From positions 1-28,397 of IMG/VR virus record IMGVR_UViG_3300030708_001134: a stretch of DNA of 28,397 nucleotides; one strand, 5' to 3'. Under the pieces are notes generated by a model that saw only the letters and a list, made by a program, of their open reading frames with translations, did no database searches and was not told the origin of the DNA. This document shows positions 329 through 3,102 of the stretch, one piece after another (within the stretch, counting starts at the first letter, position 1; each line of letters starts with the position of its first letter). A program made the position numbers and the translations under genes. Source of the DNA: a virus (taxonomy: Duplodnaviria; Caudoviricetes).

Positions 329-416
329 AGCCCTCCACTGGACGTGAGCCTTGGGAGGGCTTCATTAAAGTGCTCAAATACATACCTTTGGAAACAACAA
401 CCCTGCACTTTTAATG
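329..416 (+). promoter_or_regulatory. Structured psbA 5' leader with two stems, the second pairing with the start codon
   Basis: AGCCCTCC (329-336) pairs with GGAGGGCT (354-361). CATTAAAGTGC (363-373) pairs with GCACTTTTAATG (405-416) with one bulged U, covering the psbA ATG at 414. Confidence 0.5.
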
Positions 417-1490
417 ACCGCTGTACTTCAACAACAACAGAGGTCTACCTGGGATGAGTTTTGCTCCTGGGTAACCTCTACTAATAATCGACTTTATGTT
501 GGCTGGTTTGGAATCCTTATGATCCCAACCCTGCTGGCTGCTACAATTTGTTTTGTAACTGCATTTATTGCAGCACCCCCTGTAGACATCGATGGAATCC
601 GAGAACCTGTCGCAGGCTCCCTCCTCTATGGAAACAACATCATATCGGGAGCCGTCGTTCCGAGCAGCAATGCCATCGGACTACACTTCTACCCAATTTG
701 GGAAGCTAATACACTTGATGAATGGCTCTACAACGGGGGTCCATACCAGCTCGTCGTGTTCCACTTCCTCATTGGCGTCTTTGCTTACATGGGACGAGAG
801 TGGGAACTTAGCTATCGATTAGGGATGCGTCCCTGGATCTTTGTTGCTTACTCCGCACCTGTAGCTGCAGCTACTGCCGTGTTTCTTGTCTATCCCTTTG
901 GACAAGGATCCTTCTCTGACGGAATGCCCCTCGGTATCTCCGGTACTTTCAACTATATGTTGGTCTTTCAGGCGGAACATAATATCCTTATGCATCCATT
1001 CCATATGCTGGGAGTTGCTGGCGTCTTCGGCGGCAGTTTGTTCTCTGCTATGCATGGCTCTTTGGTTACCTCCAGCCTTATCCGTGAGACTACTGAAGAG
1101 GTAAGCCAGAACTATGGTTACAAGTTTGGACAAGAGGAAGAGACTTACAACATCGTCGCCGCTCACGGTTACTTCGGACGGCTGATCTTTCAATATGCAT
1201 CTTTTAACAATTCTAGGTCGCTGCATTTCTTCCTCGCAGCTTGGCCTGTCGTCGGCATCTGGTTTGCCGCCCTCGGCGTCAGCACCATGGCTTTCAACCT
1301 CAACGGGTTCAACTTCAATCAATCCATTATTGAAGGTGAAGGTCGTGTGGTGAACACCTGGGCTGACATCCTTAACCGTGCCAACCTCGGCTTTGAGGTG
1401 ATGCATGAGCGGAATGCACACAACTTCCCGCTTGACCTTGCATCCGTGGAGACCACTCCCGTGGCACTCATGGCACCTGCCATTGGCTAA
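414..1490 (+). CDS. psbA: Photosystem II reaction centre protein D1 (phage auxiliary metabolic gene)
   Basis: 358 aa with D1 motifs [52 protein letters not shown] and [13 protein letters not shown], plus a cleavable C-terminal extension. Confidence 0.99.
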
Positions 1491-1500
1491 CTAATTCGTA

Positions 1501-1701
1501 CGTTCATCTATGTTTGACATTCGAGTCTGTGATGATGGTGCACGCATTATTCGTGATGCACTTAGACTGTATAAAAAACAGTGGCCTGGTGGTCACCCAC
1601 AAGAGCAGCAAGATATTGAGTTCTTGGAAACACAGTTTACCAAAATGGTACTTGAGTCAACCATAGACGCATGACCTCCTAAGCATGGAACGGGGCTTAG
1701 G
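1501..1701 (+). ncRNA. Glutamine-II (Downstream-peptide) riboswitch with a greatly expanded P2
   Basis: P1 is CGTTC (1501-1505)/GAACG (1688-1692). P2 is TCTATG (1507-1512)/CATAGA (1662-1667). The conserved CGCA is at 1668-1671. The pseudoknot CCTAAGC (1678-1684)/GCTTAGG (1695-1701) follows GGAACG-GG. This matches the remembered consensus CGUUCA-P2-CGCA...GGAACG-GG-pseudoknot, and it lies upstream of a YRGVxY peptide gene as is typical for the motif. Confidence 0.8.
1510..1674 (+). CDS. Small cyanophage hypothetical protein (54 aa, WPGGxPxEQ motif), nested in riboswitch P2
   Basis: ATG 1510 to TGA 1672-1674 gives MFDIRVCDDGARIIRDALRLYKKQWPGGHPQEQQDIEFLETQFTKMVLESTIDA. WPGGxPxEQ resembles a recurrent small cyanophage protein family. 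It is below the ORF-track length cut-off. Confidence 0.7.
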   Translation: MFDIRVCDDGARIIRDALRLYKKQWPGGHPQEQQDIEFLETQFTKMVLESTIDA

Positions 1702-1720
1702 TTTTACTAGGTACGAACTC

Positions 1721-1831
1721 ATGTCCAACATCGTTATCCGCTACATCCAAAACGCTAAGAAGAAAGCTGAAACCTACAAGGTTGATGCTCTTCGTTATCG
1801 TGGTGTAGTTTACAAGCAACTGGTTAAGTAA
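1721..1831 (+). CDS. DUF4278-like small basic peptide (36 aa), the riboswitch's downstream peptide
   Basis: Translates as MSNIVIRYIQNAKKKAETYKVDALRYRGVVYKQLVK with the LxYRGVxY signature. An SD-like AGGT lies at 1709-1712, directly after the riboswitch. Confidence 0.8.
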   Translation: MSNIVIRYIQNAKKKAETYKVDALRYRGVVYKQLVK

Positions 1832-1977: not shown

Positions 1978-3102
1978 ATGGCACATCAATCTAATACTCT
2001 GACCACGAGCCTTACACGGCCTGGTGCAGATAATGGCGGCGCAGACGCACGCGCCCTATATCTTAAGCTCTTCTCTGGTGAGATGTTCAAGGGCTTCGAG
2101 AACAATGCGATCGCTCGTGACCTCGTCATGAAGCGTACCCTGAAGAACGGAAAATCTCTTCAGTTCATCTACACCGGTCGTACCACGGCTGAGTACCACA
2201 CACCGGGCAACGCCATCCTTGGCAACTCGGACGGTGCACCGCCCGTGGCAGAGAAGACCATCACGGTCGACGACCTGCTCATCAGCTCCGCATTCGTGTA
2301 TGAGCTGGACGAGACCCTTGCTCACTACGAGCTGCGTGGCGAGATCTCTAAGAAGATCGGCTATGCACTCGCTGAGAAGTATGACCGTCTGATCTTCCGT
2401 GCGATCACCCGTGGTGCTCGTGCTGCATCTCCTATCACCAAGACCAACTTCGTTGAGCCCGGTGGTACTCAGGTGCGCGTTGGCGCTACCGCTAACGAGT
2501 CTGACGCTTACTCTGCAACCGCTCTGGTTGACGCCTTCTACGACGCCGCTGCTGCGATGGACGAGAAGGGCATCAGCCAAGACGGCAGGGTCGGGGTCCT
2601 CAACCCCCGTCAGTACTACGCTCTCATTCAGCAAGTTGGTGAGAACGGCCTGATCAACCGCGACAGCCAAGGTTCTGCTCGTCAGAGCGGCCAGGGCATC
2701 GTCGAGATCGCTGGCATCAAGATCTACAAGTCCATGAACATCCCGTTCCTGGGCAAGTACGGCACCAAGTACGGCGGCACCTCTGGTGTGACCGATCCTG
2801 GTAACACTGGTGACTTCGTTGAAGTTGCTGCTGAGAACGCCTCTGGCGCTTCCACCGGCATCAACAACGACTACGGCACCGCTGCTGAGCTGGGCTCCAA
2901 GTCCTGCGGCCTCATCTTCCAGAAAGAAGCCGCTGGTGTTGTCGAGACCATCGGACCTCAGGTCCAGGTGACCTCCGGCGACGTGTCCGTTGTCTACCAA
3001 GGCGACGTGATTCTGGGACGTCTCGCCATGGGCGCTGACTACCTGAACCCCGCTGCAGCCGTTGAGCTGTATGTTGGTGGCACTGCTCCTTCTGCCTTCT
3101 GA
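1978..3102 (+). CDS. Major capsid protein (T7 gp10-like)
   Basis: 374 aa with ALYLKLFSGE, RTLKNGKSLQF, EKTITVDDLLIS and a C-terminal MGADYLNPAAAVEL. Strong codon bias, and it is followed by a terminator and gp11/gp12. Confidence 0.97.
   Translation: MAHQSNTLTTSLTRPGADNGGADARALYLKLFSGEMFKGFENNAIARDLVMKRTLKNGKSLQFIYTGRTTAEYHTPGNAILGNSDGAPPVAEKTITVDDLLISSAFVYELDETLAHYELRGEISKKIGYALAEKYDRLIFRAITRGARAASPITKTNFVEPGGTQVRVGATANESDAYSATALVDAFYDAAAAMDEKGISQDGRVGVLNPRQYYALIQQVGENGLINRDSQGSARQSGQGIVEIAGIKIYKSMNIPFLGKYGTKYGGTSGVTDPGNTGDFVEVAAENASGASTGINNDYGTAAELGSKSCGLIFQKEAAGVVETIGPQVQVTSGDVSVVYQGDVILGRLAMGADYLNPAAAVELYVGGTAPSAF

Follow-up and report, generated by a model that had tools for sequence, protein, structure and literature searches.

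The region between psbA and the capsid gene of a marine cyanophage raises the question of whether selection can maintain a small riboswitch aptamer that is interrupted by a complete protein-coding gene and, if so, how aptamer and gene act on each other. The window (the whole analysed stretch of 28,397 nucleotides) is a fragment of a T7-like cyanopodovirus with the gene order of S-SBP1, S-TIP37 and P-SSP7. The stop codon of psbA ends at 1490, 10 nt upstream of aptamer nucleotide C1 (1501), and the tail-tube genes come after the capsid gene; the features of the region are listed in Table 1. Upstream of psbA, positions 1-318 match PF24653 (E 5.6e-37) and are the 3' part of an outer-membrane-like beta-barrel gene of cyanophages. 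No sigma-70-like promoter was found on the + strand between positions 250 and 3300. Contigs from RNA libraries of two studies, which may include DNA, cover the whole element (1378-1766 and 1437-1756). In one further RNA-library contig, which probably derives from a related phage with another layout, 1517 is fused to 1783, and the shorter side has 23 nt.

Table 1. Features of the psbA–capsid region of the window, with the basis of each assignment.
Feature	Position	Strand	Basis
psbA (D1), 358-aa ORF	414..1490	+	same place as annotated psbA in S-TIP37 and S-SBP1
Predicted P0, 5' strand (TTCGTAC), includes ligand-contacting C1	1495..1501	+	pair probabilities 0.47-0.73 with 1711-1717
Aptamer 5' half CGTTCA: pseudoknot strand C1-G2-U3-U4-C5 and A6	1501..1506	+	sequence mapped on PMC6698751; in 100/100 protein-found loci
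P1, 5' strand, holds nested ATG at 1510	1507..1526	+	fold, covariation
Nested 54-aa gene, WxGGxPxEQ two-helix hairpin family (phrog_628; S-SBP1 gp32)	1510..1674	+	ORF, profile matches, conservation
P1, 3' strand, within last codons of nested gene	1650..1667	+	fold, covariation
Linker strand C17-G18-C19-A20 (CGCA), doubles as codons Asp53-Ala54	1668..1671	+	sequence; GAC GCA invariance
P2 hairpin, 1678-1684 (CCTAAGC) with 1695-1701 (GCTTAGG)	1678..1701	+	RF01704 match, covariation
Predicted P0, 3' strand (GTACGAA), 4-10 nt ahead of downstream peptide start	1711..1717	+	sequence, pair probabilities
36-aa downstream peptide, LRYRGVVY motif (IF17-like / DUF4278-like by resemblance)	1721..1831	+	sequence
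T7-like major capsid protein gene	1978..3102	+	ORF; synteny with S-SBP1, S-TIP37 and P-SSP7

A preliminary description of this DNA, made from the letters alone, had proposed that two intact halves of a glutamine-II aptamer are rejoined by a long stem around a complete gene, and each of its statements on the sequence holds: CGTTCA, CGCA and the 3' hairpin are intact, the ATG of the 54-aa ORF lies inside the 5' strand of the stem and its TGA (1672) directly follows CGCA. Between CGTTCA and CGCA lies an arm of 161 nt, which holds the gene. Two labels have to be changed. Helices are named here by the crystal numbering given in the accessible part of PMC6698751, in which P1 equals P2 of glutamine-I and the pseudoknot forms between C1-C5 and G36-G40. 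By this numbering the gene-bearing stem, previously called P2, is P1. CCTAAGC/GCTTAGG, previously called the pseudoknot, is the ordinary hairpin P2; the true pseudoknot is CGTTC (1501-1505) with GAACG (1688-1692), the latter strand lying in the P2 loop (A33-G42, 1685-1694). Every pocket nucleotide of the crystal structure is present in the window, including the glutamine-contacting C1, G18, C39 and G40; C17-C19 with the long-range pair C19:G41, A6, A33:G42 and G35 are all found (1506, 1668-1670, 1685, 1687, 1693 and 1694).

The lower part of P1 is formed by TCTATGTTTGAC (1507-1518) and GTCAACCATAGA (1656-1667), which pair at 11 of 12 positions (mismatch T1513/C1661); beyond a 2-nt bulge TCGAGT (1521-1526) pairs with ACTTGA (1650-1655), giving 17 pairs in total. 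The stem that had been read from the letters also appears in the predicted fold: the minimum-free-energy structure of 1488-1725 includes both the long stem and the 3' hairpin (z -2.15; 4 of 200 shuffles equally stable), the paired positions of the long stem have pair probabilities of 0.78-0.96, and the mean stays at 0.79-0.94 with up to 600 nt of context folded. The Rfam model RF01704 matches the 3' half only (model positions 25-60 at 1668-1701) with 21 bits against a cut-off of 33, so that a covariance search misses the element, as had been suspected. Because of the 161-nt arm and the match restricted to these model positions, we file the element as a derived variant and not as an Rfam member. 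A search of the window with the glutamine-I model RF01739 (three-way junction, E-loop, no pseudoknot hairpin) gave no match up to E 10, and the 3' half carries the glutamine-II hairpin; the element does not fit glutamine-I. The long-form RNA very probably still binds glutamine.

The nested protein matches phrog_628 (E 1.5e-5) and S-SBP1 gp32 (93%). A profile built from 26 nested members retrieved 223 clusters at 50% identity, and the predicted protein structure is a two-helix hairpin (pLDDT 90.5) with a WxGGxPxEQ turn. The protein has no sequence match in Pfam, NCBIfam or PDB and its structure no Foldseek match in PDB at E 0.001; matches among viral structures are uncharacterised phage proteins, and those in the Atlas are unnamed. 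The 103 distinct nested proteins diverge to as little as 21% identity between cluster representatives, and the median dN/dS is 0.18 in the 1011 of 5253 pairs with a usable synonymous distance (these pairs are not independent). As the nesting model presupposed, the ORF is conserved, with the same family in the nested versions down to this identity and at this dN/dS; by these comparisons the nested gene is real and under purifying selection. Relatives of the gene also occur without the aptamer: myovirus homologues stand in ordinary operons without flanking aptamer halves (3/3 loci examined), and a glutamine-II match is absent at 20/20 loci of cyanobacterial homologues (9 of 401 genomes). In one host genome (G363:C1:1237641-1239946, 1716631-1719180) both homologues have a compact glutamine-II riboswitch at a distance of about 2 kb, an arrangement absent from four other host genomes checked.

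How widely the nesting is conserved was assessed by two routes, with the protein and with the RNA pattern. The first set consists of 100 viral loci collected by protein similarity alone (80 from one set of matches and the 20 that a second set newly added; 57-100% identity). The aptamer halves that the preliminary description had proposed to look for around homologues are there: the 5' half, CGTTCATC, is found within 25 nt upstream of the start in 100/100 loci and the 3' half in 97 of the 98 loci with complete downstream DNA (91 with the strict pattern, six with one-base variants), so that the association is no accident. The single exception, L080, is a deletion. At this locus (L080:1826-1960) the first 21 nested codons are fused out of frame to the tail of the peptide region and the 3' aptamer half is gone; the deletion is perhaps an assembly chimera.

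The pattern scan of viral contigs found 120 stretches with a gap of 136-196 nt in 34 of 64 parts (about 230 estimated), 27 with a gap of 197-257, three with 75-135 and five with 258-318; none of the three and five matches at the last two gap ranges has a correctly spaced CGCA. From 231 pooled long matches, 145 were distinct; 15 without a correctly spaced CGCA, the family ORF being in none of them, were removed, and the 130 nested versions that were kept include this window and S-SBP1. The arm measures 160-187 nt in 129 of them, the remaining one, a deletion, having an arm of 129 nt, and the family motif is present in 128. The other two alleles, whose aptamer halves are intact, have lost part of the gene, L290 by an 11-codon in-frame deletion and L338 by an early stop after 25 codons. 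An unbiased sample (2 of 64 parts) contained 46 phage glutamine-II elements, 41 compact and five nested, and four of these five score below the Rfam cut-off. A loose pattern scan of genome contigs was unusable (about 6800 chance matches); in five host genomes the loose long-gap pattern gave 65 matches versus 35 in the reversed control. A split glutamine-II aptamer that carries a gene is almost certainly a real and conserved architecture.

The stem spanning the gene is under selection, as far as the alignments tell. P1 pairs 1 and 2 are invariant and paired in 130/130 nested versions. Pair 3 is paired in 129/130 as four different pair types (C-G 63, U-A 56, U-G 8, G-C 2), and the compensatory changes expected for the gene-bearing stem are thus found; its 5' base is mostly non-coding and its 3' base mainly a third codon position. 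Among 26 representatives, pair 3 is formed in all and changed on both sides in 10, and a tree-based test gave only seven independent contrasts on well-supported branches, about five of them concordant and none discordant (median p 0.06). When the 14-nt P1 strands were swapped between versions, own partners paired at -10.05 kcal/mol versus -4.67 kcal/mol for swapped ones (0/10,000 permutations; 25/26 representatives), and in control windows 30-60 nt further into the ORF own and swapped partners were no different; strand-swap tests of this kind are not independent of kinship. In the 26-row alignment 97.7% of cells pair, versus 29-53% with slid partners. Past pair 3 the register of P1 shifts, and only 3-4 contiguous anchored pairs are found in 57/130 versions; the 17-bp stem read in this window by the preliminary description is therefore not typical. 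P1 is weak in some members of the family, its first three pairs having a predicted probability below 0.5 in 7/26 representatives.

The other parts of the aptamer are kept too. Each of the seven P2 pairs is formed in 118-130 of the 130 versions, and six of the seven are changed on both sides. The pseudoknot C1-C5/G36-G40 is present in 26/26 representatives and, being invariant across nested versions, shows no covariation; its columns are fixed by the search pattern for some rows, but not for the 100 protein-found loci. Where gene and aptamer overlap, codons 53-54 (GAC GCA) are invariant in 57/57 members of the clade, whereas the codons used elsewhere for Asp and Ala vary, and GACGCA is retained where the ORF stops earlier (in 13 versions the stop precedes C17 by 2-4 nt). 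The position of the nested stop ranges from 4 nt before to 14 nt after C17 (+7 in 107/130). The invariant GAC GCA together with the variable stop indicates that the overlap is driven by the RNA.

Compact relatives have arms of 10-44 nt and score 42.8-56.3 bits with RF01704; P-SSP7, S-TIP37 and S-RIP2 have such copies at the same genomic site. In S-TIP37 (54.5 bits) the leader, 10 nt behind psbA, and the 3' half are those of the nested form, the P1 loop between them has 3 nt, and a peptide and then the capsid gene follow; the cultured S-SBP1 is nested (19.6 bits). Four compact-type elements (L105, L168, L173, L178) have longer P1 arms of 41-44 nt, and L105, at 27 bits, is under the cut-off. Some nested and compact elements have near-identical flanks (similarity 0.98 for L333/L166 and 0.93 for L002/L108), indicating that the phage can dispense with the nested gene, and the same downstream peptide types stand behind both forms. 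Because all nested genes belong to one family, the likely history is that a gene of host or myovirus type was captured once in a tolerant P1 loop and that its ends later crept into the aptamer core; at the conserved halves, nested and compact forms would then have been exchanged by recombination, or the gene been cleanly lost more than once.

The preliminary description had also suggested that ribosome traffic from psbA could gate the riboswitch. A gating specific to psbA is rejected: the upstream stop lies 8-11 nt ahead of C1 in 105/124 nested loci, behind many different genes, and 7-12 nt ahead in 22/37 compact loci, so that the short spacing is specific neither to psbA nor to nesting. Upstream ribosomes may act on the leader helix, an effect that would not be special to psbA or to the nested form.

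The peptide downstream has a YRG motif in 127/130 nested and 41/41 compact loci. The peptide of the window has no Pfam match, and that of S-TIP37 matches DUF4278 at E 0.065, below the cut-off. In S-SBP1 the YRG-motif peptide is present (L081:3210-3317) and missing from the GenBank annotation. An ATG within A33-U34-G35 is in frame with the peptide in this window; it was rejected as a conserved start, its distance to the peptide start varying among relatives. A helix, P0, is predicted between the leader and the initiation region of the peptide; it is also predicted in S-TIP37 and S-SBP1, and its mean probability goes down to 0.23 when 1300-1900 is folded. In nested versions, leaders pair better with their own initiation region than with swapped ones (-6.08 versus -4.94; 1/5000), and own partners are also better in the compact set (29/5000); C1, though, lies within the best duplex between leader and initiation region in only 10/25 nested representatives and 29/41 compact loci. 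In the published model the pseudoknot competes with a structure that hides the ribosome-binding site (PMC6698751, Discussion), and a type-2 switch from a host has an ON response (PMC6212724, section 17); the predicted P0 helix fits both.

Folding of the aptamer and translation of the nested gene had been thought to exclude each other. On one molecule this should be so, because the start codon and the last codons are themselves aptamer nucleotides and a ribosome must melt P1 and C17-A20. The nested start codon is predicted to pair with the 3' region of P1 in 23/26 representatives; in every lineage, however divergent (to 21% identity), it is located within P1 or next to it, 9-17 nt from C1, and an SD-like word precedes it in none of the 130 versions. 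As P1 and P2 are reported to form already without ligand (PMC6698751, Discussion), the nested start may stay buried with or without glutamine.

On balance we lean towards a working translational ON switch for the downstream peptide, in which P1, by its predicted pairing of the start of the gene with its own end, would damp nested translation. Without glutamine, the leader including C1 would pair with the peptide initiation region and hold the peptide off; glutamine would draw C1 into the pseudoknot, which stacks on P1 and P2, so that P0 would become weaker and the peptide start be freed. Ribosomes of the nested gene would load mainly before the 3' end is transcribed, or while P1 breathes, and each finishing ribosome would traverse P1 and C17-A20 and run into P2, so that a molecule being translated could not bind glutamine. 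The bound state would shut P1 over the nested start, and high glutamine would shift output from nested protein to peptide. That this amounts to a self-closing switch, in which finishing ribosomes reopen the start and glutamine locks it shut while releasing the next gene, with the reciprocal control itself selected, is a tentative proposal that we consider possible but rather doubtful. If true, one sensor would flip, possibly bistably, between two phage proteins by the nitrogen status of the host.

Another reading, which we also hold to be possible but not the probable one, is that the nested gene is a passenger: the aptamer would act on untranslated mRNA and control the peptide only, P1 would be kept for the sake of the aptamer, and the nested gene would be translated at a low, glutamine-independent level, either in a co-transcriptional window or by coupling to the upstream gene. 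This would agree with a P1 pre-formed without ligand (PMC6698751, Discussion), with the compact twins, which have almost identical flanks and no gene, with the share of compact forms in the unbiased sample (41 of 46 elements), and with the ordinary expression contexts of host and myovirus homologues. The variable stop positions, too, fit neutral 'core creep', a model for intron-encoded ORFs that predicts such a spread in the accessible text of PMC3073962. What a passenger does not readily explain is that the start codon has been held in or beside P1 in every lineage, with no spacer or SD sequence that would free it.

Two further readings are much less likely. The halves may no longer form a working aptamer and serve instead as recombination joints for psbA-capsid cassettes, or the 3' half may work alone. 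Upstream genes, nested alleles and downstream peptides are indeed shuffled around the conserved halves, and the Rfam score of the window is under the cut-off; joints, however, could do without base pairing, whereas here a non-coding base and a third codon position, 155 nt apart, covary, P2 covaries and every pocket nucleotide is retained, which makes this reading very unlikely. Alternatively, the long P1 could be a processing signal, cut by a double-strand nuclease that removes or silences the nested gene and leaves a two-piece aptamer. T7-like phages use RNase III sites, and the window stem, interrupted by one bulge, offers 17 pairs. A two-piece glutamine-II aptamer, cut elsewhere, binds its ligand according to the accessible part of PMC6698751. 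Most versions, however, have only 3-6 contiguous pairs, and the RNA-library contigs run through both P1 strands (partial cutting would still be compatible with them); processing is a very unlikely explanation.

Among known systems, the closest is the glutamine-II riboswitch itself (Downstream-peptide motif, RF01704; PDB 6QN3), which in the accessible parts of its literature (PMC2864571, PMC6212724, PMC6698751) shares the pocket nucleotides, the order P1-PK-P2 and a YRG-motif peptide downstream; the window differs in its protein-coding 161-nt P1 arm and its 21 bits, under the cut-off of 33. The 2010 alignment includes the compact copy of P-SSP7 and, in the part available, has about 94 columns for the P1 arm region (PMC2864571), so that none of its rows can have a 161-nt arm. 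Group I introns with endonuclease ORFs, such as I-TevI in the T4 td intron, likewise have, in a peripheral loop, an ORF whose start is sequestered and whose ends reach into core helices ('core creep'), and there too ribosomes and folding conflict (PMC3073962, accessible text). Here, the host RNA is a 60-nt ligand sensor and not a ribozyme, and the nested ORF, unlike intron endonucleases, has no nuclease family match and no sign of self-mobility. A group I intron with a loop-encoded endonuclease was considered and rejected: the window has no intron match and the ORF no Pfam, NCBIfam or PDB sequence match. The Neurospora TPP riboswitch also uses long-distance base pairing, over about 530 nt, as described in the available text of PMC3597705, but there an intact aptamer pairs with a distant intron element, whereas here a coding gene splits the aptamer.

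The preliminary description knew of no account of this architecture, and our full-text literature searches, whose coverage mostly excludes subscription journals, did not turn up any glutamine riboswitch described as having a gene inside it. Papers on phage or marine riboswitches treat them without nesting in the parts available (PMC9004378, PMC12379486, PMC9964418, PMC12695635), and the accessible main text of the S-SBP1 transcriptome study mentions neither a riboswitch nor gp32 (PMC7885011). The locus indicates that selection can keep a small riboswitch aptamer even when an entire gene interrupts it; as four of the five nested elements in the unbiased sample are under the Rfam cut-off, covariance scans undercount riboswitches. 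Through the switch proposed here, the nitrogen status sensed by phages that abound in the ocean would bear on how two genes of their psbA-capsid region are translated. The proposal can be tested directly, since two phages that share their flanks, S-SBP1 (nested) and S-TIP37 (compact), form a natural pair and are in culture.

Between the peptide and the capsid gene, the window holds a second conserved structured RNA (1838-1923). It combines a hairpin with an internal-loop stem that covaries and a core, GCCGTC..GACGGTGGGA..GACCAC, that is nearly invariant, and it has no Rfam match within the window. Seven of its 15 consensus pairs are changed on both sides, and the core was found in 75/105 nested and 14/22 compact loci that have enough flank.
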